Shown one piece after another: positions 3,001 to 18,775 of a stretch of 64,000 nucleotides of DNA. The notes under the pieces were generated by a model, which ran no database searches, had not been told where the DNA came from, and worked only from the letters and a program-made list of their open reading frames with translations. The DNA is taken from positions 4,480,001 through 4,544,000 of the forward strand of contig OZ242311.1 of assembly GCA_965207885.1 (NCBI GenBank), given 5' to 3'. The DNA comes from Candidatus Latescibacterota bacterium. GTDB lineage: Bacteria; Latescibacterota; UBA2968. Made by a program: the position numbers and the translations under genes. Every line of letters begins with the position of its first letter. Positions within the stretch are counted from its first letter, which is position 1.

Positions 3001-6000
3001 CTACCGTCGGCACATCAGGTACACCGGGCACTTCTGTGTCTACATCAGTCACTGTCACCGTAATCGTCTGCGTCGCTGTCAGAACACGCGCATCTGCACC
3101 ACTCGTTGCTTCGACAATCACGATGTATTCATTATCACCCGCTCCACTGACAGGGGCTGTGCTGGCCACATCGGTAGGGGCCTCATAATTGGGTGCCACC
3201 TTGAACGTCAACACACCTGTTTGGTCATCAATCTCAAACTGTGATCCATCGGCACCTTCAACAATGCTATAACCCTCTACGTCATCATCGCTATCTGCAT
3301 CAGTCGCACTGACTGTGACAAGGGCACCTGTGCTATTCTCTGCCACGCTGATCGGCGAGATAGTAGCAATCACTGGGGTCACATTCGCACTTGTTGTCCC
3401 ACTCACTGAAGAAGACCAGTCACTCGTGCCTTCGTCACTTTCTGCTCTAACCTGTATATCATAGCTCGTATTCTGGCTCAAGCCGCCTATCAGATATTCG
3501 AGATTGCCATCACCACTCTTCCAGGCCTCTTCCTTCACGGCCCAGTTGGTATCATCTGTCTCATCCTCACTTGTCAGAATATGACGTACATCATAAGCAC
3601 TGATCGCTGGTCCCATGTTCGTAGGCGCTTCCCATTCCACGGTCAGACTATTAAAGGTCGAGGATGCCACTGTCGGGGCATCAGGCACACCAGGGGCCTC
3701 ATCCACATCACTCACTGTCACGGTCAGTGTATCTCTTACCATCAACTCACGCGCATCTGTCCCACTCTTCACCTCCACCACCACGATGTATTCATTATTC
3801 TCTCCTGCATTGTTGTTCGCCGAATTGGATATATCCTCAAACGCTACATCGGTAGGTGCCTCATAGTTGGGAGCCACCTTGAAACTCAACACACCCGTCT
3901 GATCATTGAGATCAAACTGTGCTCCATCACCAACTTCAACGATACCATACTCTATGATGCTATCATTCTCATCTGCATCTGTTGCACTGACTGTGACAAC
4001 ATCACCTGTGCTGTCCTCACTGAATGTAACCGCAGAGACACTCGTGAAGACAGGGGCGACATTAGCTTCGGTTGTCCCTGCTACAGTATCTGACCACCCA
4101 CTTGTTCCTTCATCATTCTTTGCACGCACCTGCACATCATAGCTTGTGTTCTGCACCAAACTGCCAATCGTGTATTCAAGATAGCCGCCATTAACACTCG
4201 TCCATACATCTTCGGTCACTACCCAGTTAGCATCTGCCTTATCCGTTGCACTACTGAGGATGTGGCGCACATCATACGCACTAATCTCAGGACCCGTGTT
4301 CGTCGGCGCTGTCCAACTCACCGTCAAGTTGTTAAACGTTGAAGCAGAGACTGTCGGTGTATCAGGCACTCCAGGAGCTTCGTTCACATCCTCTACAGTC
4401 ACCGTAAGCGTATCCCCTGCTGTCAACGCACGATCACCTGTCCCACTCGTCGCCTCAACAATCACAATGTATTCATTATTCTCTGCTGCATTGGCTGGAT
4501 CGGTAACAGCCACATCTACAGGATCTTCATAGTTCGGCGCTGTATTAAATGTCAATACACCACTCTGATCATCAATCTCAAACTGTGACCCATCTGCATC
4601 ATCAACAATGCCATAACTCTCAATGTCATCATCGGCATCCCTATCTGTTGCACTCACGGTAGCTATATCTGCTGTGCTGTTCTCATTCACACTGAACGCT
4701 GAGGCACTCGTGATGACGGGTGCCTCATTGGCCTGTGTCATCCCCACTACAGCATCAGACCAGTCACCAGTGCCCTCATCACTTTCTGCCCTAACCTGCA
4801 CATCATAGCTTGTATTCTGAGACAGTAAACTGATCGTATACTCAAGACTACCACCATCACTACTCTTCCAAGCATCTTCCTTCACGGTCCAGTTGGCATC
4901 ATCTGTCTCATCCTCACTTGTCAGAATATGACGCACATCATAAGCACTGATCGCTGGTCCCGTGTTCGTAGGCGCTTCCCATTCCACGGTCAGACTGTTA
5001 AAGGTCGAGGATGCCACTGTCGGGGCATCAGGCACACCAGGTGCTTCGTTCACATCACTCACTGTCACGGTCAGTGTATCTCTTACCATTAACTCACGAT
5101 CACCTGTCCCGCTCTTCACTTCCACCACCACGATATACTCATTGTTGCTTGCTGCATTGGATGGATCAGCTACCGCTACATCCTTAGGATCCTCATAGTT
5201 TGGATCCGCTTTGAACGTCAGTACACCACTTTGTTCAGTAAGCGCAAACTGCTCTCCATCTGCTGCATCAACAATCTCATACCCTGTAATACTATCATCG
5301 TCATCGGCATCACTCGCAGTGACTGTGACCAGTGCCCCCGTGCTGTTCTCTGCCACACTGATTGGAGAGATAGTGGCGATGACTGGCGCCACATTCGCTC
5401 TTGTTGTCCCACTCACCGAAGAAGACCAGTCACTGGTGCCTTCATCACTTTCTGCTCGCACTTGAATATCATAGCTTGTGTTCTGCTCCAGACTGCCAAT
5501 CGTATATTCAAGGTCATCACCATTATTACTCGTCCACACTTCCTCAACCACTGTCCAGTTGTCATCTGCCTTATCTGATGCATTGGTCAGAATGTAGCGG
5601 ATATCATACGCGCTTATATCAGGACCTGTGTTATCAGGCGCACTCCATTGCACCTTTAAGCTATTCACTGTTGCCTCTGCCACTGTTGGTGCATCAGGTG
5701 CTCCAGGGGCTTCGTTCACATCCTCCACAGTCACCGTAAGCGTATCTCTACCTGTCAACTCACGACCACCTGTCCCACTCTTCACCTCCACCACCACGAT
5801 GTATTCATTATTCTCTCCTGCATTGTTGTTCGTCGAATTGGATACATCCTTAAACGCTACATCGGCAGGTGCCTCATAGTTGGGAGCCACCTTGAAACTC
5901 AACACACCTGCAGCTTGAACAATCTCGAACTGTGATCCATCTGCACCTTCAACAATGTGATACCCTGTGATGTTGTCATCTGCACTGGCATCTGTCGCTG

Positions 6001-7480
6001 TGACTGTGACAATGTCCGCTGTGCTGTTCTCACTAAATGTAACCTCAGATAAACTCGTGAATACAGGAGGCGTATTATGGCCGGTAGTAGCTCGAATCGC
6101 TGGAGACCAATTACTTTTTCCGCCCTCAAAGACGGTTCTAACTTGAAACTCATAAGTCGTCGATCTCCCCAGGCCGACGACTGTATAAGACATATCAGAT
6201 CTGGTAAAATTGACGGGTATAATGGTATTATAGTCCTCATCAACCTTTCTATATTGGATCTCATAGCCAATAATAACATAATCATTCGCAGGTGGTGCTC
6301 TCCAGGTGATCTCAACAAAAACAGTCCCAATTGGTTTCACTCTTGCGAAGATAGGTTTATCCGGCGTGAGTGGATGTATAATATTTATAGTAACTTCAGC
6401 AGTAGCAACACCACCATTACTGTCATCTACAACGATGGTGAACGTGTAAACCTCTTTATTGAACACCGCACCTGCTTTCGTCTTAATATGACCGAACCAA
6501 TTAACCGTAAAATTGGAAGCATCATCACCCATTAAAGAATAATTCAACTTGTCATCATTGGGATCATAGGCTCTTACAGGCGGATCAATTTCCAGTATGA
6601 TAGACGGGTCTAAAGTAGATGGGTCTAAAGTAAAAGAGAGAACAACAGAATTTTTGGGAAACACCGGTGGCATATCCATATCTGTCACCGGCTCAACAGA
6701 GATATGAAAATAGGACATATAATACTGTTCGCCATCAACCACATCTATTTCTATCTTGAAAACGCCCACCTTCTCCGGGATTCCGACGACCGTCATCATG
6801 GTCTTACCCGTCGTAGAATCATAGTGAAAGTCATCCATACGTATGCCGCGTGGGAAATTTGCAATGCCCATCTGATCATAATGTGGCGTGCCACCAGATA
6901 CAGTAACAAGGACATCTGGCATGGCAGTACCAAATGCAAGTTTTAGAGTATCGGAGAGTGTTAAAATTCTACCAGACTCTTTTATGGCTATTTCTATGTG
7001 AACAGAAGACTCACCGTCAACTGCACCAGTTTGTTGATTTTTTACTAACTCTTGCCCTGATACGATATTTTTATCTCCCAAAACCTTCACAGGATGCGCT
7101 GAGATAGCGGTCGGCGTATGATTCACCACTTTGCCATAGTTTTTCGCAAAAATTAAAAAATCGGCAAAATCAACTGTCTCATTGCCATTGATGTCGTATT
7201 TTGCATTGTATTTTTCATCTTCATCCTGTGTCCCAAAGTGGTTGACAAACGCCCGAAAGTCATGTGAATCGACAATCCCATTTCTATCAAAATCTAAAGA
7301 AGATACGATCGCAGTTTGCAATTCTACATTTAGTATTTCACTGGCAACCTGTCCATTCCTGCCAGGTTCAGCACGCACCAACCGAATCAAAAAAAGAGGC
7401 CATGAGAAAATCAACAGAGTGATGAGTATGAGTGCAAAGATCAAGGCAGGTACTGAACACCTGTTAAGCAGCTTTGACAT
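1..7480 (-). CDS. Giant secreted/surface protein, 3'-partial (>2490 aa): N-terminal hydrophobic segment, dockerin/EF-hand-like pair, cadherin-like and FN3 domains, five cadherin+FN3 units, FN3, GH5 glycoside hydrolase, CBM-like domain, a sixth cadherin+FN3 unit, leucine-rich repeats
   Basis: ATG at 7480 with AGGAGGT RBS (7486-7492). Frame checked by hand at the ATG, at the GH5 NEP codons (2038) and at the window edge. Absent from the ORF track, consistent with no in-frame stop before the edge. Motifs: DFDRNGIVDSHDF...YDINGNETVDFADF; APNYEAP and VTVTATD (cadherin); WxAP..Y..Y and TSYDIQVRA (FN3); YEVFNEP and WCGEFG (GH5); LQTLNLDRNQLSALPANVF (LRR). Confidence 0.9.
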   Translation of the reverse strand, partial: MSKLLNRCSVPALIFALILITLLIFSWPLFLIRLVRAEPGRNGQVASEILNVELQTAIVSSLDFDRNGIVDSHDFRAFVNHFGTQDEDEKYNAKYDINGNETVDFADFLIFAKNYGKVVNHTPTAISAHPVKVLGDKNIVSGQELVKNQQTGAVDGESSVHIEIAIKESGRILTLSDTLKLAFGTAMPDVLVTVSGGTPHYDQMGIANFPRGIRMDDFHYDSTTGKTMMTVVGIPEKVGVFKIEIDVVDGEQYYMSYFHISVEPVTDMDMPPVFPKNSVVLSFTLDPSTLDPSIILEIDPPVRAYDPNDDKLNYSLMGDDASNFTVNWFGHIKTKAGAVFNKEVYTFTIVVDDSNGGVATAEVTINIIHPLTPDKPIFARVKPIGTVFVEITWRAPPANDYVIIGYEIQYRKVDEDYNTIIPVNFTRSDMSYTVVGLGRSTTYEFQVRTVFEGGKSNWSPAIRATTGHNTPPVFTSLSEVTFSENSTADIVTVTATDASADDNITGYHIVEGADGSQFEIVQAAGVLSFKVAPNYEAPADVAFKDVSNSTNNNAGENNEYIVVVEVKSGTGGRELTGRDTLTVTVEDVNEAPGAPDAPTVAEATVNSLKVQWSAPDNTGPDISAYDIRYILTNASDKADDNWTVVEEVWTSNNGDDLEYTIGSLEQNTSYDIQVRAESDEGTSDWSSSVSGTTRANVAPVIATISPISVAENSTGALVTVTASDADDDDSITGYEIVDAADGEQFALTEQSGVLTFKADPNYEDPKDVAVADPSNAASNNEYIVVVEVKSGTGDRELMVRDTLTVTVSDVNEAPGVPDAPTVASSTFNSLTVEWEAPTNTGPAISAYDVRHILTSEDETDDANWTVKEDAWKSSDGGSLEYTISLLSQNTSYDVQVRAESDEGTGDWSDAVVGMTQANEAPVITSASAFSVNENSTADIATVSATDRDADDDIESYGIVDDADGSQFEIDDQSGVLTFNTAPNYEDPVDVAVTDPANAAENNEYIVIVEATSGTGDRALTAGDTLTVTVEDVNEAPGVPDTPTVSASTFNNLTVSWTAPTNTGPEISAYDVRHILSSATDKADANWVVTEDVWTSVNGGYLEYTIGSLVQNTSYDVQVRAKNDEGTSGWSDTVAGTTEANVAPVFTSVSAVTFSEDSTGDVVTVSATDADENDSIIEYGIVEVGDGAQFDLNDQTGVLSFKVAPNYEAPTDVAFEDISNSANNNAGENNEYIVVVEVKSGTDARELMVRDTLTVTVSDVDEAPGVPDAPTVASSTFNSLTVEWEAPTNMGPAISAYDVRHILTSEDETDDTNWAVKEEAWKSGDGNLEYLIGGLSQNTSYDIQVRAESDEGTSDWSSSVSGTTSANVTPVIATISPISVAENSTGALVTVSATDADSDDDVEGYSIVEGADGSQFEIDDQTGVLTFKVAPNYEAPTDVASTAPVSGAGDNEYIVIVEATSGADARVLTATQTITVTVTDVDTEVPGVPDVPTVASSTFNSLTVEWNAPENTGPEITAYDVRYILASEDETDDANWIVVEDAWETDGGDLSYTIGSLSPNTSYEVQVRAESDEGISDWSDSVSGTTLVTVPGAPTDLIATSGFLVTLSWIAPADEGGSPITRYEYRASDDDGTTWDPNWTTTGGTATTYTVGDLTFDTEYTFEVRAVNVVGNSLVSNQATATPKRRLPPFSRGVNLTVFMQRPRTHPFITYDRQTFVNVKTLGCDVVRLPFVPLTSGGPSHIIDPLFFTYLDQIVDWAEELGLYIILDNHTNHKLAAEETDQNNRSDTREYLVQVWPQIAERYKNRSKLVLYEVFNEPNIQPSIWNPIQQAVIDTIRAHDNTHTIVVTGGKFHSGALRTLPEYTDDNLIYTFHIYNPGEFTHQGAGWIDRFKDLRGVPWPYDASRMPDPVPEILEDYHTKGTLEKLQNGLKNAVDFAEDRNVPVWCGEFGVYGPYAPPDDRAAWIREARTYMEDNNIAWTLWEYGVGGFKIFENEGDDHFDYNLDISIVGALGLNVPPQLEWVTVSKQAGFEIYTDGLNSLGEGISGKLYSRGWLTFDDDTEAVVGNKSIYWSGAKKSDIVRFDFTPNFDLSFLVGDYVFEFWVWGDTPGTEFRVRFDMDSNRGYRVNEENIGITSWDSQWHQVSIPLSRLGRSNATWEDVDGIIFTTTEDFGDTIFRLDDIKITTNVAPVITSISPITVNENTTSALVTVSATDDDMGDDIERYGIESGADGAQFSIGASTGVLTFKVAPNYEAPADVAVTDPANAAGNNEYIVFVSATSGTGGRALTARDTLTVTLTDVDGEAPGVPDAPTVASSTFNSLMVEWEAPANTGPAISAYDVRHILTSEDETDDANWTVAEDAWESGDGALEYTISSLSQDTSYDVQVRAENDEGTSGWSDTVVGMTEIAPGICTRTAAVQTEILSAIAGITDCALVTDSHLENISGTLGFTNESITTLQENDFSGLFGLQTLNLDRNQLSALPANVFSDLTNLQ
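270..6070 (-). repeat. Intragenic ~670-bp cadherin+FN3 repeat units (approx. 270-930, 2730-3390, 3390-4070, 4070-4730, 4730-5400, 5400-6070)
   Basis: Near-identical DNA blocks, e.g. tgtctcatcctcacttgtcagaatatgacg.acatcataagcactgatcgctggtcc near 430, 3556 and 4902; block ~3760-3897 is nearly identical to ~5772-5908. Confidence 0.85.
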
Positions 7481-7521
7481 ATTACACCTCCTAAAGACAG
7501 ACACCATCCTATCTGTAGTGA

Positions 7522-7538
7522 TGCAATATGTGTGCCAA
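7522..7538 (-). promoter_or_regulatory. Sigma54 (-24/-12) promoter of the giant surface-protein gene
   Basis: Minus strand reads TTGGCACACATATTGCA, matching TGGCAC-N5-TTGCW, about 40 bp upstream of the ATG. Confidence 0.85.
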
Positions 7539-7722
7539 CATGACTTTCTCTAAATCATTTTACACATAAAGTATTATTTTTATTTGAGATAAAAATTTAA
7601 AAACAAAAAAGAGCCAGACCGATTTTTATGCCATTAGACGATATATAGTCCAATGATATAATCAGACTGACTCGTAATTTTAGGTAATTTTACTTATTAT
7701 CAAAGCTTTAAGACAAATGGAT

Positions 7723-7748
7723 TAAATATAGTCCCTGGACTATATTTA
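7723..7748. promoter_or_regulatory. Palindrome, candidate upstream activator sequence
   Basis: TAAATATAGTCC-CT-GGACTATATTTA, about 200 bp upstream of the sigma54 promoter. Confidence 0.5.
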
Positions 7749-7835
7749 GTCTTTATTATAGACATTTTTTACCTGTTTAGACCGATTTCATGTCTTTTAA
7801 GACGGCATAGCGTCAAAAAATAATCAAACTAATCC

Positions 7836-10800
7836 TTACAAACCAGGACGTTCAATACCCAACTTTTTCATTTTGCTGTACAGAGTAGAAGGCGGTAATC
7901 CCAGCAGAATCGCCGCACCCTTTGCTCCTTTTACCCGCCAGTTGGTGTCTTGAAGCACTTCAATGAGATATCGGCGTTCAAATTCCTCCAAAGGCACGAC
8001 TTTGGGATCTTGAGAAACTGGCGACGCATTATCTTCATTGTCAGGAGCTATATGAGAACCATATAGTCCGAGATCTCGCACTTCAGTTTGAGAACCGCGG
8101 CACACGATAACCGCTCGTTGTATGATATGCTCCAGTTCCCGCACATTTCCCGGCCAATAGTAGGTTTGCAACCCCTCTATAACATCTGGCGTCAAGGCAC
8201 CGACTTGCTTTCCCAGATGTGTAGCTATGCGAGTCTTGAAAAATTCGGCCAGACGCGGTATATCCTCCTTGCGCTCGCGCAGGGGGGGGAGAATAATTGG
8301 AAAAACCTGGAAACGATAATACAGATCCTCGCGAAAAGTACCTGCACTGACCATCTCCTGCAGGTCGCGATTGGTCGCTGCCACAATCCGCGCCTGCACC
8401 CTCAGTATCTCGCTACCCCCAACGCGCTCAAAAGTACGCTCTTCCAGCAAACGCAACATCCTGGCCTGCGTTTTCGGAGCCATATCACCAATCTCATCCA
8501 AAAAGAGTGTGCCGCCCTTAGCCAGTTCCACCTTGCCCAGCTTGCGAGACACTGCGCTGGTAAACGCCCCCTTCTCATGACCAAAAAGTTCACTATCGAT
8601 CAGCGTTTCAGGCAGTGCACCGCAGTTGACCTGGATAAAAGGACCATCGCAATGGGGACTCAGCGCGTGTAACACCCGCGCAGCCAATCCCTTACCCACA
8701 CCTGTCTCACCCAGAATCAGCACAGTTATATCAGTGGATGCCACCTCCATGAGTCTGATTTGAAACTGGCGCATAGCTTTGCTCTGCCCGATAAACTCTT
8801 TGCCAACACCATCTGTGTTGTTGAGCACGGAGGTCAGCGCGCTGATGCGCGGATCCATCTCTACTGCAAGTTGCACCTGCGCCATCTCTGAGTAATTGAG
8901 GTCGCGATCTACAGCCCTGACCTGAAAGGTGTAGTCTCCCGGTGGCAGGTCCCGGTAATAGACCCGCATCTCTCGGATCGCTGGCTGCCAGTCGTGGTCA
9001 TAGCCCTTCAAACGATAGACATAGAGCATGTCGCGGGGATGAGTGGAAAAACTCAGGCCTTTATACTCGAAAATCACACTCTGCTCTGTCGTAGATAGGA
9101 CTCTTTCCTCTAAGTTCTCATAGACCTTATCCGCGACGACCTGGAGCAGGCGAACAGTGGGAGGCGTCTGTCGTGGGCGGTAGCGTATTATGGCCTCCCC
9201 AGCAGTGCCAAACCAGAAAGCTCCGTTGCGGTCTTCGAGTATTTGGAAAATTGATCCTATATGCGGTGACTTGATGGTCTGAAAAATCTGACCATCGTAG
9301 TGAGCTACACCCCCGTCCATGCCGAGCCAGAGATCTCCTCGCGAATCCTCAAATAAGCAATGGATGCGGTTGCACGGCAAGCCATCTTCGGTGGTAAAGT
9401 TGCGAAAAACAACACCATCAAAGCAACTGAGACCTCTTTGAGTGGCGATCCACAAATTGCCGTGTCGGTCTTCTAATAAGTCGGTAATCCGGTTATCTAA
9501 CAACCCATCTGCAACAGTATAAAAAGAAATACCGTCTTCTATGTGCCACCGCCCGATACCCTTGCCACTGCCGAAGGGATTGTAGGTGCTCACACTAAAC
9601 CAGAATTCACGGTTGCGCCTGGCGACCAGAGCACTAATGTAGTTGAATTGCTCTTCTTTCTTCTCAAAAACGGTTTGGCACTGCCCATCCCGGTAGTAAA
9701 CGATCTGCAGTGGTCTGGCAAACATCTCTTCTGTTTTTTTTCTAAGACCATTTTCCCACTGTCCAAAAATAAGTTGTCCATCCCGGCTCTCGGCGATTGC
9801 GCTGACACCCACTTCACCAGTACCTACGGCAATGTCCATTTTTTGAAAGGCCTGCCCATCGTAGCGAAACAGACCGTTATCCCCTCCAAACCACAGGTGT
9901 CCATCGCGGTCCTCGTAGATGGCGGAACAACTATTGAGATCAAGACCTTGTTCTGCTCCAACAAATTCAAAGTGCTCGCCATCGAAGCGCGCCAGGCTTT
10001 TGGTTGCGGGGCACAGAAAAGGCTCGGAAAATCCGATCCATATATCTCCCTGTCGATCCTGCAACATCCGTGATATTCTACTATCATCTTCGGGAAAATT
10101 CGTACCAAAATCGAAAATACTGATACTATACGCATCGTATAGTCCTAAACCGCCGCCCCATGTGGCGAACCAGAACTGATACTCGCGATCCTGAAATACG
10201 GCGTTGACAACGGGATGGGGCAGGCCATCGACAAGGGTAAACCTGCCGAATCCATCACCATTCCAGTAGAGGACCCCTGTCGAGGTACAGAACCACATCC
10301 GACCTTCGCGGTCACACTGAATTTTGCGTAACTCACCACCCAAATTCACCTCAACAGACTGAAAGGCACCATCGGCATAGCACCACAGTCCATCTCTGCG
10401 CTGCGATCGACCAATCCACACCTTGCCAGTATGATCCTTGCCCACAGTATAGCTACTCTGGTCTGGTGGAAAACCCTCTTTCTCGTCGTATCGATAAAAG
10501 GATTCTCCATCGAAGCGGATGAGGTAGTCAAAGCCAAACCACAGGTGGCCTTCCATATCCTGGGTGATGCCCCAACACTGATTGGTCCACTCAGGAGAAG
10601 GCGGCTGCTCATAGTGCTGTAGATAGAGCGGAATCAGGTCGTGGAAAGCTGTGCCCTCGTAATACCCCAGAGTACTGATACCACCAAACCATATACGGCC
10701 CTTATTATCTTCGTAGATGAATAACACGGATCGGTCTGCGATCCCATCGTCCTCCAAATGATGGAAATTTATCCCATCGTACCAGCAGACCCCATTCATT

Positions 10801-11045
10801 GTACCGAACCATAGCCGCTTCTGACTATCCAAATGGATGGCAAAAACTCGATCGCTACACAAACCTTCCTGCTCGGTAAACGTCTCGAACTTGTCCCCAT
10901 CAAAGCGGCTAACACCACTATCCCAGGTAGCAATCCAGAGGCAACCCTCGCTGTCTTCTGCGATATGTTCGGTGCGCACCCCAGCCAGACCATTGGCAAG
11001 GGAATAAGTCCGCCAGGTGCCCTTTCTGTCGAGTGACTCGATCAT
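7836..11045 (-). CDS. Sigma54-dependent enhancer-binding protein with N-terminal two-component-regulator beta-propeller repeats, Y_Y_Y domain, AAA+ domain and Fis-type HTH (copy 1)
   Basis: Repeated EDxxGxLWxxT propeller motifs; [23 protein letters not shown]; GETGVGK; [13 protein letters not shown]; FLDEIG; WPGNVREL; C-terminal HTH. Confidence 0.9.
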
Positions 11046-11221
11046 GGCTAAGAAACCTCATGATATAGGTGAAAGAAAACTCTACCCCGCCCCAAAATAT
11101 CATGCAACATCCCAACCAAAATATTTATCCCAGGCGAGTGAATCATTAACCCTATTACTTTGACGCTTTACCTCTCCAATGGTTCGGATTCCTAAAGACA
11201 ATATCAGTTCTGTTTGAAAGG

Positions 11222-11238
11222 TGCAATATGCGTGCCAA
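11222..11238 (-). promoter_or_regulatory. Sigma54 (-24/-12) promoter upstream of activator copy 1
   Basis: Minus strand reads TTGGCACGCATATTGCA; flanks are homologous to 7490-7620. Confidence 0.8.
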
Positions 11239-11330
11239 CGTGAATATCTCGAGGCAATTGTAATCATAACAGATTATTTTTACTCAAGATATGATTTTTT
11301 TAAAAAATAAAAAACCAGACTGTACTTCAT

Positions 11331-11362
11331 CTAATAATGGACAATAGACCGTCCATTATTAG
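11331..11362. promoter_or_regulatory. Palindrome, candidate upstream activator sequence (a terminator hairpin is the alternative)
   Basis: CTAATAATGGAC-N8-GTCCATTATTAG, about 100 bp upstream of the sigma54 site. Confidence 0.55.
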
Positions 11363-11444
11363 TCAATCTGGCTTCTTTGATTCTGCTATATGTAGAGTTT
11401 TACAATAAAGGTCTCTATATCGCATTAAAAATGATATATCGCAT

Positions 11445-14400
11445 TCATGAAGAACGTCTAATACCCAATTTTTTCATTCGGCTGTACAGGGTAGAAGGCG
11501 GCAATTCCAGCCGCGCCGCCGCGCCTTTTGTTCCCTTTACCTTCCAATTAGTAATTTCGAGCACTTCGAGAATATAGAGACGTTCAAATTCATCCAAAGG
11601 CACGATTTCGCGGTCTTGAGAATCCGATAAGGAAGTCCACACCAGGTCCAGAGCAGCGCCTTTGATTCGCGAACGATACGATCCAAGATCCTCCAATTCG
11701 ATCCGAGCCCCCTGGCACACGGTTACTGCTCGCTGCATCGCATGCTCCAGTTCCCGCACATTTCCAGGCCAATCGTAGGCTTGAAACTCCTCTATAACAT
11801 CTGGCGTCAAGGGACCTATCTCCTTGCCGATATGAGCCGCCATGCAAGCCTTGAAAAATTCAGCCAGATCCGGTATATCCTCCTTGCGCTCGCGCAGAGG
11901 TGGCAAATAAAGCGGAAAACCATAGATGCGATAATAGAGGTCCTCGCGAAAAGCACCTGTGCTGACCATCTCCTCCAGGTTGCGATTGGTCGATGCTACA
12001 ATGCGCGTCTGCGCTTTTAGTGTCTCGCCCCCCCCAACGCGCTCAAACGTTCCCTCTTCCAGCAAGCGCAATAGCCTGGCCTGCGTTTCCAGAGTCATAT
12101 CGCCGATCTCGTCCAAAAAGAGCGTGCCATCTTTGGCCAGTTCCACCTTGCCCAGCCTGCGAGAAACTGCACTGGCAAAAGCCCCTTTCTCGTGACCAAA
12201 CAGTTCACTATCGATCAATGTCTGGGACAGGGCACCGCAGTTGACCTGAATAAAAGGACCACCATTATGGGCACTCTGTTCGTGTAATACCCGCGCAGCC
12301 AATCCCTTACCCACACCCGTCTCACCCATAATCAGCACGGATAGATCAGTCGATGCTACCTCCTTGAGTCTGGTTTGAAACTGGCCCAGGGCCGTACTCT
12401 GCCCGATAAATTTGTTGCTCTCCTGGCTATTGAGTGCCGCTGTCAGAGCTTCAATACGCAAGTCTGGTTCTATTGAGATTTGCACCTGTGCTATCTCTGA
12501 GTAATTGAGGTCGCGATCTACAGCCCTGACCTGAAAGGTGTAATCGCCCGGTGGCAAATCCCGGTAATGCGCCCTCATTTCTCGGGTCGCTGGCTGCCAG
12601 TCGAGGTCGTGTCCCTCCAGGCGATAGACATAGAGCATATCGCTGGAACGAGTAGAAAAGCTCAGGCCCTTGTACTCGAAAATCACATTCTGCTCTGTGA
12701 TAGATAGGATGCCTTCTTCTATGTTCTCATGGACCTTATCGGTAATCACCTGCAGCAGGCAAATCCGAGGCGGGGTTTTTTGTTGCCTATAGCGCACCAG
12801 AGAATTTTGGACTGTCCCGAACCAAAAGACTCCATCACGGTCTTCGAGTATTTGAAGAACAGGTCCTATATGCGGCGAATTGATGGTCTGGAAAAGTTGA
12901 CCATCGTAGTGAGCCACGCCCCCGTCTGTGCCAATCCAGATGTGGCCTCGCTGATCTTCTAACAAGCAGCGGATGCGGTTGCTCGGCAAACCGTCTTCAG
13001 TGGTGAAGGTGTGGAAGGTGCTACCATCAAAGCGACTGAGACCGCTTTGGGTAGCAATCCATACGCTCCCATGCAGGTCTTCCAGCAGGTCCTCGACTTT
13101 GTCATCTATCAGCCCATCTTCAATCCCATAAAATTTAAGGCCATCTTCGGAATGCCAGCGCGCAAAACCCTTATCTTTGTCGAAAAAATTTGGGTAATGA
13201 ATAAAAAAATAAAACTCGCCATTACGCCCGGCAATCACCGTGCCGATGCGGCCGAAAGGATCTCTCTGTACATTAACCTCAAGAATAGTTTGTAACTGAT
13301 CGTCTCGCTGGTAAAAGAGCCTCAATGGGCTACCCCAAAAGTCTCTTTTTCTTGTTATTTTTTCTTTTCCCCAATCGCCAAAAAGAAATCTCCCTTGCGA
13401 ATCCTGGGCAATTGCACAAATACCACTTTCGCCTAAACCTGCAGTTGTTTGCATTTTTTTGAGCTTATCTCCATCATAGCGGAACAAGCCATTGCCACCT
13501 CCAAACCACAGGTCCCCGGCGGAGTCCGCGTAGATGGCGAAACAGTTGTTGATGTCAAAACCATCCTCAGTGCCTACGAATTCAAAGTGCTCGCCATCAA
13601 AGCGAAAAACGCTTTTCTCCACACGGTTGAGAAAGGGAGCTATATACCCGACCCATATATCTCCTCGCCTGTCTTGCACGATCTGTGAGATCTCAACCAT
13701 ATTGTTGTTTTCAAAAACCGCCGCATTGTGATCAAAAACACTGATACTATGTGCATCGTAAAGCCCGACGCCCCCCCAGGTAGCAAACCAGAACTGATGC
13801 TCGCGGTCCTGGAACACAGCTTTGACTGCGGGATGGGGCAAGCCATCGGCAACGGTAAACCTGCTAAACCCATCTCCATCCTGATAGAACACCCCATCTG
13901 AAGTGCAAAACCACATCCGCCCTTCCCTGTCGCACTGAATTTTGCGCAGGCTGTCACCCAAATCTACCTCAACAGATTGGAAGGTGCCATCGGCATAGTA
14001 ACAGAGTTTATCCTGGTATCTACGATGACCGATCCAAACATAGCCGGTAGAGTCCTGCGCCACAGCATAGGCCGTGTTGCCTTTCGGAAAACCATCTTTC
14101 TTCTCATAGCGATGAAAGGATGTGCCGTCGAAACGGATGAGGTAGTTAAATCCAAACCACATCTGACCTTGTGGATCCTGAGCAATACCCCGACACTGAC
14201 TGGGCCAGAGAGGAGAAGGCGGCTCCTCATAATGCTGAAGGTAGATCGGAATTAAATCGCGGAACACAGTGCCATCATAATATCCCAGAGTCCTGTGACC
14301 GCCACACCATATACGCCCCTCCCTGTCTTCGTAGATGAACTGCACAGCACGCCCTGCGATCCCATCGTCCTCCAAATGGTGGAAATCTGCTCCGTCATAC

Positions 14401-14663
14401 CAGCAGACCCCATTTAGTGTACCAAACCACAATCGCTTCTGACTGTCCTGTAAAATAAAATAAACGCGGTCGCTAATCAGACCATCCTGTCGCGTAAAAT
14501 TCTGGAACTCGTCTCCGTCAAAGCGGCTGGCCCCATTGTCCCAGGTGGCGAACCAGAGATAGCCCTGGCTATCCTCGGCGATGTGTTCAATGCGCATCCC
14601 AGCCAGGCCATCTGCCATAGAATAAGTTTGCCAGGTACCCGTGCGGTCAAGTGACTTGATCAT
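11445..14663 (-). CDS. Paralogous beta-propeller/Y_Y_Y/sigma54 activator (copy 2)
   Basis: Collinear with 7836-11045; start placed at MIKSLDRTG by alignment with MIESLDRKG; L1 loop reads GAFASA. Confidence 0.9.
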   Translation of the reverse strand: MIKSLDRTGTWQTYSMADGLAGMRIEHIAEDSQGYLWFATWDNGASRFDGDEFQNFTRQDGLISDRVYFILQDSQKRLWFGTLNGVCWYDGADFHHLEDDGIAGRAVQFIYEDREGRIWCGGHRTLGYYDGTVFRDLIPIYLQHYEEPPSPLWPSQCRGIAQDPQGQMWFGFNYLIRFDGTSFHRYEKKDGFPKGNTAYAVAQDSTGYVWIGHRRYQDKLCYYADGTFQSVEVDLGDSLRKIQCDREGRMWFCTSDGVFYQDGDGFSRFTVADGLPHPAVKAVFQDREHQFWFATWGGVGLYDAHSISVFDHNAAVFENNNMVEISQIVQDRRGDIWVGYIAPFLNRVEKSVFRFDGEHFEFVGTEDGFDINNCFAIYADSAGDLWFGGGNGLFRYDGDKLKKMQTTAGLGESGICAIAQDSQGRFLFGDWGKEKITRKRDFWGSPLRLFYQRDDQLQTILEVNVQRDPFGRIGTVIAGRNGEFYFFIHYPNFFDKDKGFARWHSEDGLKFYGIEDGLIDDKVEDLLEDLHGSVWIATQSGLSRFDGSTFHTFTTEDGLPSNRIRCLLEDQRGHIWIGTDGGVAHYDGQLFQTINSPHIGPVLQILEDRDGVFWFGTVQNSLVRYRQQKTPPRICLLQVITDKVHENIEEGILSITEQNVIFEYKGLSFSTRSSDMLYVYRLEGHDLDWQPATREMRAHYRDLPPGDYTFQVRAVDRDLNYSEIAQVQISIEPDLRIEALTAALNSQESNKFIGQSTALGQFQTRLKEVASTDLSVLIMGETGVGKGLAARVLHEQSAHNGGPFIQVNCGALSQTLIDSELFGHEKGAFASAVSRRLGKVELAKDGTLFLDEIGDMTLETQARLLRLLEEGTFERVGGGETLKAQTRIVASTNRNLEEMVSTGAFREDLYYRIYGFPLYLPPLRERKEDIPDLAEFFKACMAAHIGKEIGPLTPDVIEEFQAYDWPGNVRELEHAMQRAVTVCQGARIELEDLGSYRSRIKGAALDLVWTSLSDSQDREIVPLDEFERLYILEVLEITNWKVKGTKGAAARLELPPSTLYSRMKKLGIRRSS

Positions 14664-14755
14664 AAAAAAGAAACCTTGCGATATTGGTAAAAGAAAACCG
14701 GATAGATTCAACTCTTTCAAGACAGACCAAACTCTTTTGCTGCAAAAAAAATTTG

Positions 14756-14772
14756 TGTAATATATGTGCTAA
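14756..14772 (-). promoter_or_regulatory. Degenerate copy of the sigma54 promoter module
   Basis: Minus strand reads TTAGCACATATATTACA, 14/17 identical to the 7522-7538 site, but GG->AG and GC->AC; flanking gtgaat...gcaatt...attattttt matches the 11240-11281 region. Confidence 0.55.
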
Positions 14773-14861
14773 TGTGAATTTATTCAAGCAATTATATGTT
14801 ATAAGATATTATTTTTTATGGGGCATAATGGATCGCGCATCGCCTACATTCATATCCATCG

Positions 14862-16148
14862 TCACATCTCCTTTGCCACACCGGCAACCGCTTCAATCGT
14901 CGCATCAATCACATCATCTGTATGCGCTGTCGATAAAAACCACGCGCCTCGCTCCAACGCGCGCACGCCTTTGTAGTGGAGTGCCTCTGTAAATTTGATG
15001 TACTGCTCGCGATCTGCTTGAAGCGAACTCCGATAATCGACAACTGGGGCATCAACGCCAAAGCCCACGTGAAAAATCTGCGGGAAACCCGCAACCCTGG
15101 CTTGAATACCGACATCTCTTAGTGCGCGCGCGATACCTTCCATAAGCCGATTGCCCCGCGCATTGAGCGCGTCAAACGTCTCTTCTTTGCCCAACTCAGT
15201 CAGCGTAGCGATCACCGCGGCCATAGAAGCGGGTTGCGCATTATAAGTGCCGCCGTGCATCACATCCGCGACGAGCATATCCATCAAATCGCCTCGCCCT
15301 GCCAAACACGAAACTGGAAACCCATTGGCTATCGCCTTGCCAAACGTCGCCAGATCGGGCGTCACCCCAAAGTATTGCTGTGCGCCGCCAGGCGCCACGC
15401 GAAACCCCGTAATCACCTCGTCAAAAATGAGCACCGTTCCCGTATCGGTACACACCTCTCGAAGCCCTTCCAAATAGCCCTCAGCGGGAAAAATTGTGCT
15501 GGTATTGCACATCGCAGGCTCCATAATAACAGCCGCGACATCCCCGCGTTTCAGGCGTGCACTCAGAAGCTCCAGATTATTCCAGGGAAGCACCTCAGTG
15601 TGCTGACCTACCAGCAGGTCTTGCCCTGCACTGGCGGGAATGGGAATGGGCGCATCAACCGGACCATACTGCTCGGGCGGGGGCGCGACAGACCACAGCA
15701 CATTGTCAAACCAGCCGTGATAATGTCCCTCAAATTTGATAACACAAAACCGCTCCGTAGCCGCACGTGCCAGGCGCAAAGCCGCCTGCACCACTTCACT
15801 ACCCGTGCAGTTAAAACGCACCCGCTCCGCGCAGGGCACCATATCGCAAACCATCCTGGCTGCCTCTTGCTCTACTGCTGTTTGTCCGGCAAAAAGAATG
15901 CCCGACTCGAGCTGTTCTCGAACAGCAGACAATACGGGTTCTGGATTGTGCCCGAGAATCATCGGCCCCATGCCCAGATAATAATCGATCAAACGATTGC
16001 CATCCACATCGTAGAGATATGGCCCTTCGCCGCGTTCAAAAACCAGAGGCGAGGGAACCATCCCCAGCCGAAAATTGCTGTTCACACCGCCCGGCAAATA
16101 GCGCGAGGCTTCGGCGATCAAACGCCTGGATTCTTCAAAACTTTTCAT
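14862..16148 (-). CDS. Class III PLP aminotransferase, glutamate-1-semialdehyde aminomutase-like
   Basis: PGGVNS, DVDGN..IDY, FEGHYHG, IFDEVITGFR, TFGKAIANG, GGTYN; start reassigned to MKSFEES. Confidence 0.85.
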   Translation of the reverse strand: MKSFEESRRLIAEASRYLPGGVNSNFRLGMVPSPLVFERGEGPYLYDVDGNRLIDYYLGMGPMILGHNPEPVLSAVREQLESGILFAGQTAVEQEAARMVCDMVPCAERVRFNCTGSEVVQAALRLARAATERFCVIKFEGHYHGWFDNVLWSVAPPPEQYGPVDAPIPIPASAGQDLLVGQHTEVLPWNNLELLSARLKRGDVAAVIMEPAMCNTSTIFPAEGYLEGLREVCTDTGTVLIFDEVITGFRVAPGGAQQYFGVTPDLATFGKAIANGFPVSCLAGRGDLMDMLVADVMHGGTYNAQPASMAAVIATLTELGKEETFDALNARGNRLMEGIARALRDVGIQARVAGFPQIFHVGFGVDAPVVDYRSSLQADREQYIKFTEALHYKGVRALERGAWFLSTAHTDDVIDATIEAVAGVAKEM

Positions 16149-17100
16149 GGGATGATTCTTTATCGAGTTCCATAAATCGCACACGTGAGGAAACATCTTC
16201 GAGAAGGGCGCGGTTGGTGGCGATGAGATCGGCGACAATACCGGTGAGAAACATCTGAAATCCAGCGAGCAGAAGGATAGCGGCGAGGATAAGCGATTGA
16301 ATGTGAAGCTCGCCTTCGTCGGTAAAAAAGAAAAAATAGAGAAACCGGAGACCAATTAACGTGCCAAAAGCGAAAACAACAGCACCAAAAATAGAAAATA
16401 TGCGGAGTGCTTTGTAGCGTGCGTAAGTCCTCAAACTGATCATGCCCGACTTAAAAACAAATACACCCGGATTTTTGAAAAGGCGAGATTCGCGTGTTTT
16501 GGGATTCGTGCGAATGGGCACAGTTTCGACAGCGAGACGGTCTTGACCTGCTTGCACAACATGCTCGGCGGTGTGATCAAAATCCGTAAACATCGACAGA
16601 TGCAGGACCGCGTCTCGTGAAAAGGCGCGGAAACCACTGGCGACATCGGGCACCTCAATATGGGCGAGGCGACTGATGACGCGACTACCCAAACCCTGTA
16701 GCCATCGTTTAACAAAAGAAAAGTGGCCGATATCACCTGTCTGTCGATCTCCAATAACGATATGGGCGCGCTTTTTGAGAATGGGCTGAACGAGCGCGAC
16801 AATATCAGGACCGTAGTACTGGTTATCGCCATCGGTATTGACAATAATATCGGCACCGAGTTTGAGGCCAGTGTCAAAACCCGCTTTGAATGCATGACCC
16901 AGACCGCGATTTTTAGGGAATCTGATAATATGATCCACGCCGAGGTCGCGCGCGACCTCAGACGTGCGATCCGTAGAACCATCGTCAATGACCAGAATCT
17001 CGACTTTGTCAATACCGGGAACTTTGCGCGGAATATCGTTAACCGTAGCGGGCAGGGTTTCTTCTTCGTTGAAGCAGGGGATTTGGACAATCAGTTTCAT
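16135..17100 (-). CDS. Glycosyltransferase family 2 with C-terminal transmembrane helices (DPM/GtrB-like)
   Basis: IPCFNEE, VIDDGSTD, NTDGDNQY, DVASGFRAF, two C-terminal hydrophobic segments. Confidence 0.88.
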   Translation of the reverse strand: MKLIVQIPCFNEEETLPATVNDIPRKVPGIDKVEILVIDDGSTDRTSEVARDLGVDHIIRFPKNRGLGHAFKAGFDTGLKLGADIIVNTDGDNQYYGPDIVALVQPILKKRAHIVIGDRQTGDIGHFSFVKRWLQGLGSRVISRLAHIEVPDVASGFRAFSRDAVLHLSMFTDFDHTAEHVVQAGQDRLAVETVPIRTNPKTRESRLFKNPGVFVFKSGMISLRTYARYKALRIFSIFGAVVFAFGTLIGLRFLYFFFFTDEGELHIQSLILAAILLLAGFQMFLTGIVADLIATNRALLEDVSSRVRFMELDKESSHEKF

Positions 17101-17101
17101 T

Positions 17102-18775
17102 TTAGTCGCCAAAAATAGCAGCCGATGCGGCTTCGGCCTTTTTCATTTTTTCTTCATCGGATAAATCACCCATCGCTTTGTAAAAAATTTCATCGTAATC
17201 GCGCGTTTTAATAACCACGGGCATAGGTACCGCATGACCAAATACAAGAGCTTGCTGTTTGGAATCGAGACTCGCCAGAACACTTCGCAAGCCAGCGGCA
17301 TTGGACACCCCTGTGAGCACTCCCTGTATGTCTTTTTCGTCATTTAGCAAAGCCGTGATTTTTGTGCCGAGTTGTGAAAGTACCTCTTCGTCAATACCCG
17401 AGGGACGCTGGTCAACCACGAGGAGCGAAACGTAATATTTACGCATTTCCCTGGCAATCGTACCAAAAATGGTTTGCCTTGCAGTCGCGGGATTTAGAAA
17501 CTTGTGGGCCTCTTCTATGGTGATAACCAGGTGCCGCGGCTGATCTTCGGGATTTTGCGAGGCGTAAAACTTTTCGCTTTTTGTGACGTATTGTTCGTGA
17601 ATGCGGCGAGAGAGAATATTCGCCACGAGCAAATACGCGAGCATGCCGGTCTGCCGACCAAACTCGAGCACAATGTGAATGCCGCGGTCGATGTAATCCA
17701 TCATCGTATCGACGGCATCGGCTCCGTTGAGGCTATTGACCATAAAGGGAAAGTTTTCAAGGCGTTTGAGTTTGCGATGTAGCGCGGAAAGCGAACTTTT
17801 ATTGGCGCCGATATCCTCGGCAAATTGCTCGACATCGGGACCATCAATAGAAAGCAATTGGCGCAGCCAGCGATCTTTGTACATCGCGTAAACGAGATAG
17901 GCAGATTCAGAAGCCGTGGGATTGAGTTGCAGTTCGTCTTGCAACGCGATAACATCTTCGACCGCGACCTGATCGTAGGTGATGTACACCTCGTGGTCGG
18001 GTTGAATACCGCGCTGCCGAGACGATTCGGGATCGAGAGAAAAAAGGGCGACCTGATTCCCAAAAAGCTGCTTAAGGCCCTTGACAAAGCTATTGCCCTG
18101 CCCGCCCTCTTTCATAGCGCGAAAACCGTATTCATTGTGCATATCAAAAATGAGATTGACGGCTTTCTTGTTTTTGATCAGACCGCACAATACCAGACGC
18201 GTGAGAAAGGACTTACCCGTGCCCGTCTTGCCAAAAATGCCATTGCTGCGTTCGACAAAGCGATTGAGATTGATGCACACCGGCGTATCCATATCCAATG
18301 GCGTACCCATGTTGAAAAACCGGTCGTCTTTTTCCTCGCTGCCAAAAACGCGCGAGACATCCTCTTTTTCAGCTTCAACAACTTTGGAAAAATGACTGGG
18401 AATAGTTTTCACCGGACGCGGTTCATCGACGATTTCTTCGCCCTGTTCCAGCATAAGCATGGGGCGCAGTGCAACTGTGACATAGGTGCTGGAACCATTG
18501 AGAACGCTGTGCAATAACTGATCGCTCTCGCGCGGTGGATAAAGCAAAATTTCGGGATTGGTCGCATCCAAACTCAGGTCGGTGATCATGGAGAAAAACT
18601 GATTTTTATACCCCTCAATAACCACAAATTTGCCAGCTTTGACGTCTTCTACGCTGCGGTCGGGGTTGAGCTTCATCTCAACGCCCTCGGTCAAAGACCC
18701 CTGCGTGACAACGCCGATTTCGCCGCCATCCTGAATATTGGGCGAACCATTTAGATTATTCCAAAGATCGTTCAT
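17102..18775 (-). CDS. herA: HerA-family (HAS-barrel/DUF87) ATPase
   Basis: N-terminal HAS-barrel-like region; Walker A GKTGTGKS; FDMHNEY; Walker B IEEAH; REMRKY; DQRPS; lies downstream of nurA. Confidence 0.85.
   Translation of the reverse strand: MNDLWNNLNGSPNIQDGGEIGVVTQGSLTEGVEMKLNPDRSVEDVKAGKFVVIEGYKNQFFSMITDLSLDATNPEILLYPPRESDQLLHSVLNGSSTYVTVALRPMLMLEQGEEIVDEPRPVKTIPSHFSKVVEAEKEDVSRVFGSEEKDDRFFNMGTPLDMDTPVCINLNRFVERSNGIFGKTGTGKSFLTRLVLCGLIKNKKAVNLIFDMHNEYGFRAMKEGGQGNSFVKGLKQLFGNQVALFSLDPESSRQRGIQPDHEVYITYDQVAVEDVIALQDELQLNPTASESAYLVYAMYKDRWLRQLLSIDGPDVEQFAEDIGANKSSLSALHRKLKRLENFPFMVNSLNGADAVDTMMDYIDRGIHIVLEFGRQTGMLAYLLVANILSRRIHEQYVTKSEKFYASQNPEDQPRHLVITIEEAHKFLNPATARQTIFGTIAREMRKYYVSLLVVDQRPSGIDEEVLSQLGTKITALLNDEKDIQGVLTGVSNAAGLRSVLASLDSKQQALVFGHAVPMPVVIKTRDYDEIFYKAMGDLSDEEKMKKAEAASAAIFGD

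Follow-up and report, generated by a model that had tools for sequence, protein, structure and literature searches.

Organization of the locus

The DNA considered here is a 64-kb stretch (hereafter the window) of the 6.2-Mb genome of a Candidatus Latescibacterota bacterium, in which two genes for predicted sigma-54 activators, activator 2 (act2) and activator 1 (act1), stand in series ahead of a giant surface-protein gene, with a -24/-12-type promoter module, intact or degenerate, upstream of each of the three. All of the features under study lie on the minus strand, on which the order from 5' to 3' is a block of HerA-like, GT2 and aminotransferase genes, module 0, act2, module 1, act1, module 2 and the giant gene; statements about function are inferences from sequence. 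The coding parts are as follows.

14862–16355, minus: class-III aminotransferase, last gene of the HerA-like/GT2/aminotransferase block (Pfam; synteny in eight relatives)
11445–14663, minus: act2, 1072 residues from the ATG at 14663 (Pfam, motifs, paralogue N-termini, and the ratio of nonsynonymous to synonymous substitution rates, dN/dS)
7836–11045, minus: act1, 1069 residues (Pfam, motifs, hydropathy, dN/dS)
2–7480 and on beyond the window start, minus: giant secreted or surface protein, the output gene (Pfam; full open reading frame of about 2690 residues, genome positions 4479423–4487507)

The two activators share one domain architecture, which in act1 consists of Reg_prop repeats, Y_Y_Y, the Sigma54_activat AAA+ domain (PF00158, E = 3e-65), the AAA+ lid and HTH_8 (PF02954); in act2 the Sigma54_activat match has E = 2e-62 and the PF02954 helix–turn–helix (HTH) is likewise present. 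Both proteins lack a signal peptide and any membrane-like segment, with 19-residue hydropathy peaking at 1.18 in act1 and 1.0 in act2. Both retain GETGVGK and LFLDEI, and both carry the recognition helix PPSTLYS[KR]MKKLGI in a Fis-type HTH. The loop motif reads GAFTSA in act1 (residues 826–831) and GAFASA in act2 (residues 827–832), in which the alanine is encoded by GCC at 12174–12176. With dN/dS values of 0.16–0.38 for act1 and 0.14–0.24 for act2, both genes are under purifying selection. The most likely start of act2, judged from the N-termini of its paralogues, is the ATG at 14663 (MIKSLD...) rather than the TTG at 14720. The giant protein carries dockerin, cadherin, eight fn3, GH5 cellulase and LRR domains in Pfam and a signal-like hydrophobic segment near its N-terminus (residues 14–32 by hydropathy); its gene most likely starts at the ATG at 7480, which follows AGGAGG-N7, rather than at 7507.

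Promoter modules

The loci of relatives used for comparison (labelled G003, G010, L045 and so on) come from Candidatus Latescibacterota metagenome-assembled genomes, with a few records labelled Gemmatimonadota; sponge or coral hosts are indicated by isolate names of these relatives and by sponge metatranscriptome runs. The noncoding elements of the three modules, from upstream to downstream, are listed below.

14756–14771, minus: module 0, -24/-12 box TAGCACatataTTACA in degenerate form, with the upstream sites and hairpin deleted (alignment with G004)
11413–11447, minus: distal sites of module 1, repeats GCGATATATC / GCGATATAGAG, which abut the stop codon of act2 and have their homologue in the distal palindrome of module 0 in G004
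11302–11377, minus: terminator-like hairpin and U-run of module 1 (-31.1 kcal/mol, z -6.9)
11331–11362, minus: proximal palindrome of module 1, CTAATAATGGACGGTCTATTGTCCATTATTAG, inside the hairpin, unique in the genome and conserved in five species and L045
11222–11237, minus: -24/-12 core of P_act1 (module 1), TGGCACgcataTTGCA, exact consensus, 208 nt past the act2 stop codon
11046–11221, minus: leader between P_act1 and act1, without significant structure (fold z +0.96)
7719–7752, no strand assigned: distal double site of module 2, palindrome GACTAAATATAGTCC-AG-GGACTATATTTAATC, unique in the genome, which stays directly 3' of act1 in G003 and G010
7604–7673, minus: terminator-like hairpin of module 2, arms GAGUCAGUCUGAUU/AAUCGGUCUGGCUC with a U-run (-27.2 kcal/mol, z -5.6)
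7633–7654, minus: putative proximal activator site of module 2, TTGGACTATATATCGTCTAAT, inside the hairpin (from sequence)
7538–7600, minus: AT-rich spacer of module 2, TATC-N7-AAAAATAA-N4-TTAYG...TCAy, conserved across 12 aligned modules of this genome
7522–7537, minus: -24/-12 core of P_giant (module 2), TGGCACacataTTGCA, exact consensus, kept in G003 and G010

The three upstream regions align with one another, sharing an AT-rich AAAAATAAT..TTAT, a TCAC ahead of the -24 box and a TGTCTT near the ribosome site. The region upstream of the giant gene matches that upstream of act1 with E = 6e-07 (blastn against the whole 6.2-Mb genome); module 0 by itself is weaker (E of 0.007–0.3 to other modules), and its homology is secured because the orthologous copy in G004 still has the full architecture. 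A series of three homologous modules, as the first-pass annotation had described it, is borne out. TGGCAC-N5-TTGCA, which had been assigned to the first two modules, occurs exactly twice in the window, at the P_giant and P_act1 cores, where shuffled sequences give 0.06 matches on average and one in 100 shuffles reached two; 39 sites in the whole genome match TGGCAC-N5-TTGC[AT]. The third box does read TAGCAC-atata-TTACA, with both invariant dinucleotides substituted (GG to AG and GC to AC), and departs from the sigma-54 consensus. The palindromes noted at 7723–7748, within the 7719–7752 site, and at 11331–11362 are present and are each unique in the genome; their description as different holds only in part, a GGAC-N8-GTC being common to the proximal sites of the three modules. 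A genome lacking rpoN had been named as grounds for abandoning the idea, and one rpoN gene was found (a 496-codon open frame with a PF04552 match of 196 bits).

The predicted transcription starts are near 7512 for P_giant, which leaves a leader of about 32 nt, and near 11212 for P_act1, which leaves one of about 167 nt to the act1 ATG. By folding, no terminator stands ahead of act1 in the P_act1 leader, which according to alignments holds a relic, TGTCTTTAGGA, resembling the ribosome-site region of the giant gene. Over the degenerate module 0 box lie sigma-70-like hexamers, TTGAAT-17-TATATT (14759–14787, minus strand), scored against a consensus that may not be the phylum's own, and the dead box may have turned into a promoter of the ordinary kind; a sigma-70 scan was uninformative (13 sites against 9.9 expected). 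An Rfam scan of 7000–15500, at E values up to 0.1, gave no match.

A common scaffold underlies all of the modules: a distal palindromic pair about 175–215 bp upstream of the -24 box, then a third palindrome about 95–125 bp upstream, enclosed by conserved inverted arms GCCAGACTGATT...AATCAGTCTGGC and a T-run, then the AT-rich TATC-N7-AAAAATAA-N4-TTAYGA and finally TCAC-N2-TGGCAC-N5-TTGCA. The putative activator palindromes adjoin the activator genes and occupy the range of about 100–215 bp upstream of the -24 box. The hairpin consensus over 19 family members has 15 pairs, nine of them with compensatory changes, and many sense-strand G–U pairs; the hairpin may be the intrinsic terminator of the activator gene and also carry the promoter-proximal activator site. 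A possible role of the AT-rich spacer is that of a bending or IHF/HU site, and the genome has four genes of the HU/IHF family. An interpretation of the modules as mobile elements with inverted ends was rejected: they occur in activator contexts only, and their arms pair with sense-strand G–U wobbles.

Across the family the central palindrome is the variable part of this otherwise constant scaffold. The proximal sites read GGACGGTATGTCGTCT in module 0 of G004, GGACGGTCTATTGTCC in module 1 and GGACTATATATCGTCT in module 2, with an outer GGAC...GTC common to the three at positions where the family as a whole varies; in the distal position, modules 0 and 1 carry sites of the GCGATATAT type and module 2 carries GACTATAT sites. 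No other copy of the window palindromes was found in the genome, where loosely similar CGATATA...TATATCG sequences lie away from sigma-54 cores. On the protein side, act1 and act2 share an uncommon serine in the recognition helix STLYS[KR]MKKLGI. Helices with STLYT go with GACGTTATAACGTC in three of three loci from two lineages, and STLF[SN]KIK helices with GGG(G)C...GCCC(C) in four of four. STLYN helices are mostly found with GAACCATATACGGTTC. The loci behind these pairings are in the series L029–L104. The residue after STLY may thus track the central palindrome in a simple specificity code, which we offer as a lead rather than a test. Judged by site similarity and helix residues, the identity of the module 1 binder is suggestive but ambiguous. 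It is plausible that act1 and act2 bind each other's modules, and therefore both autoregulation by act1 and competition by act2 are conceivable.

A family of activators and its promoter rule

Eight paralogues of these activators, 66–82% identical, were found in the genome by tblastn, one of them (locus E) frameshifted; the homologous promoter modules that go with them number at least 11. The other modules, too, target genes for large proteins, secreted or repeat-bearing, with LRR, DUF1800, cadherin-like/fn3, chondroitinase-B/LRR, WD40 or Calx-beta domains. The cluster of this architecture in the ESM Atlas contains Latescibacterota only, and no description of a propeller-sensor activator family was found in the literature searched.

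In the survey of relatives, 76 loci were collected, from which five partial genes and two with early stops in the translation were removed to leave 69 full-length loci. Among these, 53 activators keep the G[AS]FT.A loop intact, and 49 of the 53 have a sigma-54 core beside them, counted with at most one mismatch and with GG and GC intact, a cut-off that weaker cores could escape. Of these cores, 29 lie downstream in the same direction (mostly 173–240 nt past the stop codon), 17 are divergent (about 280 nt upstream) and three genes have both. The four activators with an intact loop and no core include the act1 orthologues of G004 and G006. A neighbouring core was found for none of three activators with a GAFA loop and for none of 13 with a fully degenerate loop. 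GAFTSA, the form in act1 with its threonine kept, is the commonest loop of the family (40 of 80). From the placement of the cores it follows that the output promoter normally stands directly behind its activator gene, at about 170–300 bp downstream, or divergent from it. A promoter that points into its own activator gene was seen at two of 71 loci, one being the act1 orthologue of G010. A promoter ahead of an activator gene would then be the product of tandem cassettes. Among nine tandem activator pairs examined, several of which are orthologous and hence not independent, seven keep an intact intergenic sigma-54 promoter (this locus, locus B of this genome, G003:C22, G007:C14, G008 and two in G010) and two do not (G003:C37 and G004).

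Several further observations concern the family at large. The 13 activators with a fully degenerate loop (L054, L063, L068, L075, L076, L083, L084, L091, L092, L094, L095, L096 and L098) form a deep clade, with loops such as ERAKTA and ETATSA and no sigma-54 core within 600 bp of any member, and are probably activator-like regulators that no longer use sigma-54. Modules at C1 positions 2028426 (minus), 2020807 (minus) and 1257234 (plus), at loci L003 and L007, have near-identical upstream sites, CCATATATGG..CGATATATGG, and past the core a conserved leader of about 100 nt with 75–82% identity, which may be an RNA element; one of the three precedes a gene for a 107-residue Imm_superinfect-like membrane protein, followed by another activator gene. 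DDE transposase genes (C1 5040493–5041608 and 5393903–5395027) sit inside the activator cassettes of loci E and F, and the frameshift that splits the locus E activator (C1 5041848–5045071) could mark a pseudogene or an assembly error.

Ownership of the middle promoter

The distance of 208 nt between the act2 stop codon and P_act1 is the canonical own-output distance of the family. In L045, a locus of the act2 clade from a genome (G015) without an act1-clade gene in the surveyed set, the act2-clade gene is directly followed by the 5' half of module 1, comprising the distal sites, the left arm and the proximal palindrome up to a deletion junction. The sites of module 2, for their part, remain directly behind act1 in G003 and G010, despite an insertion in the latter. 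From position and synteny, therefore, module 1 is read as the output promoter of act2 and module 2 as that of act1, and the wiring of a cascade is physically present in this genome. The possibility that module 1 belongs to act1, with which it seems to travel, was rejected on two grounds: a recombination between modules 0 and 1 removed act2 from G010, and in L045 the sites lie directly behind an act2-clade gene with no act1.

The G010 insertion, between the act1 orthologue and the giant gene, encodes a 340-residue activator (L022:6921–8072, minus strand) with a GAFTSA-bearing AAA+ domain and an HTH and without the propeller domain. A consensus sigma-54 core lies 114 nt before its start, with act1-type sites upstream, and the giant gene that follows has its own module with altered sites. 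As a candidate for a genuine step from one activator to the next, this sensor-less activator is superior to the pair in the window.

The act2 contact loop and promoter decay in relatives

The act2 clade, with members in this genome, G003, G004, G005, G008 (L056), L099 and L045, lacks the loop threonine in seven of seven cases: where GAFT[SGNT]A would be expected, six members read GAFASA and that of G005 reads GAFANA. The matching change in PspF, T86A, abolishes engagement of the sigma-54 polymerase, according to the available portion of PMC4132715. By analogy, act2 has probably lost the ability to contact sigma-54.

The promoters around act2 show a comparable fate. An intact output promoter accompanies one of the seven act2-clade genes, namely the one in the window. 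The module 1 core is intact in this genome and in G010, reads TGATAC for TGGCAC in G003 and has been removed by a common 42-bp deletion in G004 and G006, the latter having lost act2 as well; in L045 it was lost by deletion, and in G005, G008 and L099 the whole module is absent, a plain terminator being followed by a gene for a 276-residue protein. The intact P_act1 of G010 (TGGCAC-N5-TTGCG) occurs without an act2 orthologue, the best match being 74% identical against 90–92% for orthologues; modules 0 and 1 are joined there in a chimera, the signature of a recombination by which act2 was deleted. In G004 and G006, in which the core is missing, act1 has dN/dS values of 0.16–0.19, and this purifying selection means that act1 can be expressed without P_act1. 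Module 0 is complete but mutated in G004 (TGGTAC...TTGTAT), truncated in this genome, where the sites and hairpin are gone, and deleted in G003. The three-module series appears to be ancestral to a small subclade and to be eroding from its upstream end.

In one RNA contig, from a related strain, position 14660 is followed at once by 14857, the 196 bases 14661–14856 being skipped; that strain, like G003, therefore lacks module 0, and its act2 abuts the aminotransferase gene. Five sponge metatranscriptome runs contained 5–9% of the sampled words, and four of these were compared, as assembled contigs of strains 92–97% similar; their RNA contigs cover act2 and the aminotransferase gene, touch act1 and the giant gene in only a handful of short stretches, and were not used as evidence on transcription starts or levels.

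The HerA-like (DUF87/HAS-barrel)/GT2/class-III aminotransferase block (16135–18775, and in relatives L021–L027, L056 and L099) is a fixed upstream anchor, beyond which the region is highly variable, activator cassettes having been gained, lost and recombined among close species. Between this genome and G003 (L021), act1 has a synonymous divergence (dS) of 0.03 and the adjoining act2 one of 0.25; this discordance suggests that the act1–giant cassette was recently recombined or transferred between lineages.

Interpretation

The explanation toward which we lean, with moderate confidence, is a tandem activator array with decaying upper tiers. It builds on the anatomy of the locus, the homology of the modules, the rule that holds across the family, the altered loop motif and the decay seen among relatives, all of which were obtained by computation, and from these it is inferred who binds which site and which promoters fire. 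A canonical cassette would begin with a cytoplasmic activator in which a Reg_prop and Y_Y_Y sensor is joined to a sigma-54 AAA+ domain and a Fis-type HTH; two distal palindromes would come immediately after the stop codon, then a hairpin with a paralogue-specific palindrome, the AT-rich spacer and the core, and last the gene for a large secreted or surface repeat protein. In a tandem series of cassettes, each activator's output promoter would come to serve the activator gene that follows. In the lower tier, the propeller domain of act1 may sense a cytoplasmic signal, upon which act1 would assemble on the three palindromic sites 100–215 bp upstream of P_giant and activate the sigma-54 polymerase there, so that the GH5/fn3/cadherin surface protein is expressed; act1 and P_giant with the giant gene would thus be a functional pair, the sole step that looks solid. 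The upper tiers, P_act1 and especially module 0, which would be dead, are most likely relics, because the act2 clade has replaced its contact-loop threonine and the promoters around act2 are being lost in relatives. Transcripts started at P_act1, if any, would run into act1, yet the promoter would be dispensable, being silent, or used by act1 through the GGAC-N8-GTC site common with P_giant, or used by act2 if GAFASA is tolerated. Expression of act2 would probably be independent of sigma-54, through read-through from the aminotransferase operon or through the sigma-70-like hexamers that replaced the box.

Several points weigh against this explanation. P_act1 in this genome has a perfect consensus, all of the accessory parts, the canonical distance and an unstructured leader, as a working cascade would have, and since most of the tandem pairs keep their intergenic promoter (seven of nine), activator-to-activator wiring may be selected in the genus. 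The purifying selection on act2, with its Walker motifs kept, means that the protein does something. The effect of the threonine-to-alanine change is known from PspF, whereas the normal loop of this family is already GAFTSA and not GAFTGA. The independent losses are also few, about four, as the species compared are close kin and some losses are common to them, such as those of G004 and G006.

The first-pass annotation had proposed a tiered circuit, and a working two-step cascade, in which act2 on receiving a signal A would fire P_act1 and act1 on receiving a signal B would fire P_giant, as an AND-like gate with delay, has much of the wiring to recommend it. P_act1 is intact and lies within the 173–240 nt range of the family, synteny ties the module 1 sites to the act2 clade, a strong hairpin and U-run separate act2 from P_act1 with no terminator ahead of act1, modules 0 and 1 have distal sites of the GCGATATAT type where module 2 has the GACTATAT type, promoters of this kind persist in other tandem pairs, and activator cascades are established in Myxococcus, as the accessible part of PMC9765219 describes for the Nla proteins of M. 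xanthus. What is not supported is a working top tier, given the GAFASA or GAFANA loop of the whole act2 clade, the inactivity of PspF T86A (PMC4132715, in the portion available) and the single intact downstream promoter among seven members. Nor is the circuit conserved: the middle core is intact in two of five species, mutated in one and deleted in two, one of the intact copies (G010) lacks an act2 orthologue, and act1 is under purifying selection in G003, G004 and G006 without a functional core. We therefore consider a functioning cascade unlikely, if worth serious attention. A slightly smaller chance is given to P_act1 as a promoter for positive autoregulation, act1 binding GGAC-N8-GTC of modules 1 and 2 and so amplifying both itself and the giant gene; this and the cascade overlap in part with the decaying array. 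The proximal sites GGACTATATATCGTCT (module 2) and GGACGGTCTATTGTCC (module 1) are identical at 11 of 16 positions by hand comparison, including outer bases in a part that varies across the family, act1 and act2 share the rare recognition-helix residue, G010 has an intact P_act1 before act1 with no act2, and autoregulation of an activator gene is documented for Nla28 (PMC9765219, same portion). However, the distal sites of module 1 are unlike those of module 2, the core has been lost in three of five act1-bearing species and a promoter into its own activator is rare in the family (two of 71 loci).

That the similarities are due to chance or to generic AT-rich intergenic sequence, the boxes not being promoters, we regard as extremely improbable: the RNA contigs do cover act1 and the giant gene hardly at all, but the two exact matches against an expectation of 0.06, the recurrence of modules at fixed spacing beside 49 of 53 intact-loop activators, the compensatory changes in the hairpin and the correlation of promoter presence with the sigma-54 contact motif speak otherwise. 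The tandem duplication of a promoter and activator unit that was suggested earlier as the origin of the arrangement is not supported, as a recent event, by the sequences of act1 and act2, which are about 66% identical and belong to different deep clades rather than being sister paralogues; the data are in keeping with the other proposal made earlier, a loss of the gene that the middle promoter originally served.

A more speculative proposal, which we think improbable, is that act2, recognising GAC-N8-GTC sites of the kind that act1 does, serves as a contact-defective, signal-dependent anti-activator, occupying the upstream sites or poisoning mixed hexamers as do wild-type/T86A mixtures of PspF, in a family made up throughout of private activator–promoter pairs. 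If true, the giant cellulase/adhesin gene would have two-input logic, and the family would amount to a programmable regulator set with a constant scaffold, a hypervariable central palindrome and a matching recognition-helix residue. Should the pairing of helix residue and palindrome hold, it would provide a simple specificity code for designing orthogonal sigma-54 switches. Under the decaying array, the locus is a natural experiment, in which successive stages of promoter loss surround an activator without its contact threonine, and which ties one loop residue to the fate of a promoter. The family has so far been found almost only in sponge- or coral-associated Latescibacterota, at about 8–20 copies per genome, each with a private palindrome, and its predicted targets are large 'eukaryote-like' surface proteins, a class thought to mediate life inside the host.

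Comparison with known systems

Sigma-54 promoters, enhancer-binding activators and cascades of such activators are textbook knowledge, examples being NtrC acting on nifLA and hence NifA in Klebsiella and FlrA acting on flrBC and hence FlrC in Vibrio; a cascade of Nla proteins in Myxococcus xanthus was reportedly described by Giglio and coworkers in 2011. As in these three systems, an activator gene here stands behind a -24/-12 promoter with upstream sites, so that one activator could control the next. Unlike in those cascades, the tiers are head-to-tail paralogues of one lineage-specific family, and the wiring would arise automatically from tandem cassettes; moreover, the top activator has an altered contact loop, the arrangement is not conserved among close species and the dependence of P_act1 on act2 is a prediction.

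The sensor part resembles another class of regulator. In Bacteroides hybrid two-component systems, periplasmic Reg_prop/Y_Y_Y sensors feed a kinase, receiver and AraC output. Both there and here a tandem Reg_prop beta-propeller followed by Y_Y_Y is the sensor and is linked to glycan-degrading or surface proteins, but in act1 and act2 a sigma-54 AAA+ domain and a Fis-type HTH follow directly on the sensor within the one protein, with no membrane segment. Pfam finds no kinase, receiver or AraC domain in either protein, and both fall outside the hybrid two-component class.

TyrR and the NtrC and HupR proteins of Rhodobacter are activator-like proteins that lost GAFTGA and work without sigma-54. 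The 13-member degenerate-loop clade, with no neighbouring core, is like them, and the act2 clade may be at an early stage of the same course, although act2, unlike those proteins, keeps five of the six loop residues. With PspF (PMC4132715, as far as its available portion goes) act1 and act2 share an AAA+ domain with Walker A and B motifs and the L1 loop, act2 appearing as a natural equivalent of T86A. Unlike the present activators, however, PspF has no sensor domain, and its T86A result comes neither from a GAFTSA-type loop nor from this phylum. In comparison with all of these systems the wiring of a cascade is not in itself new; the new elements are the propeller-sensor activator family, promoters with a constant scaffold and a variable palindrome, and a natural threonine-to-alanine clade.

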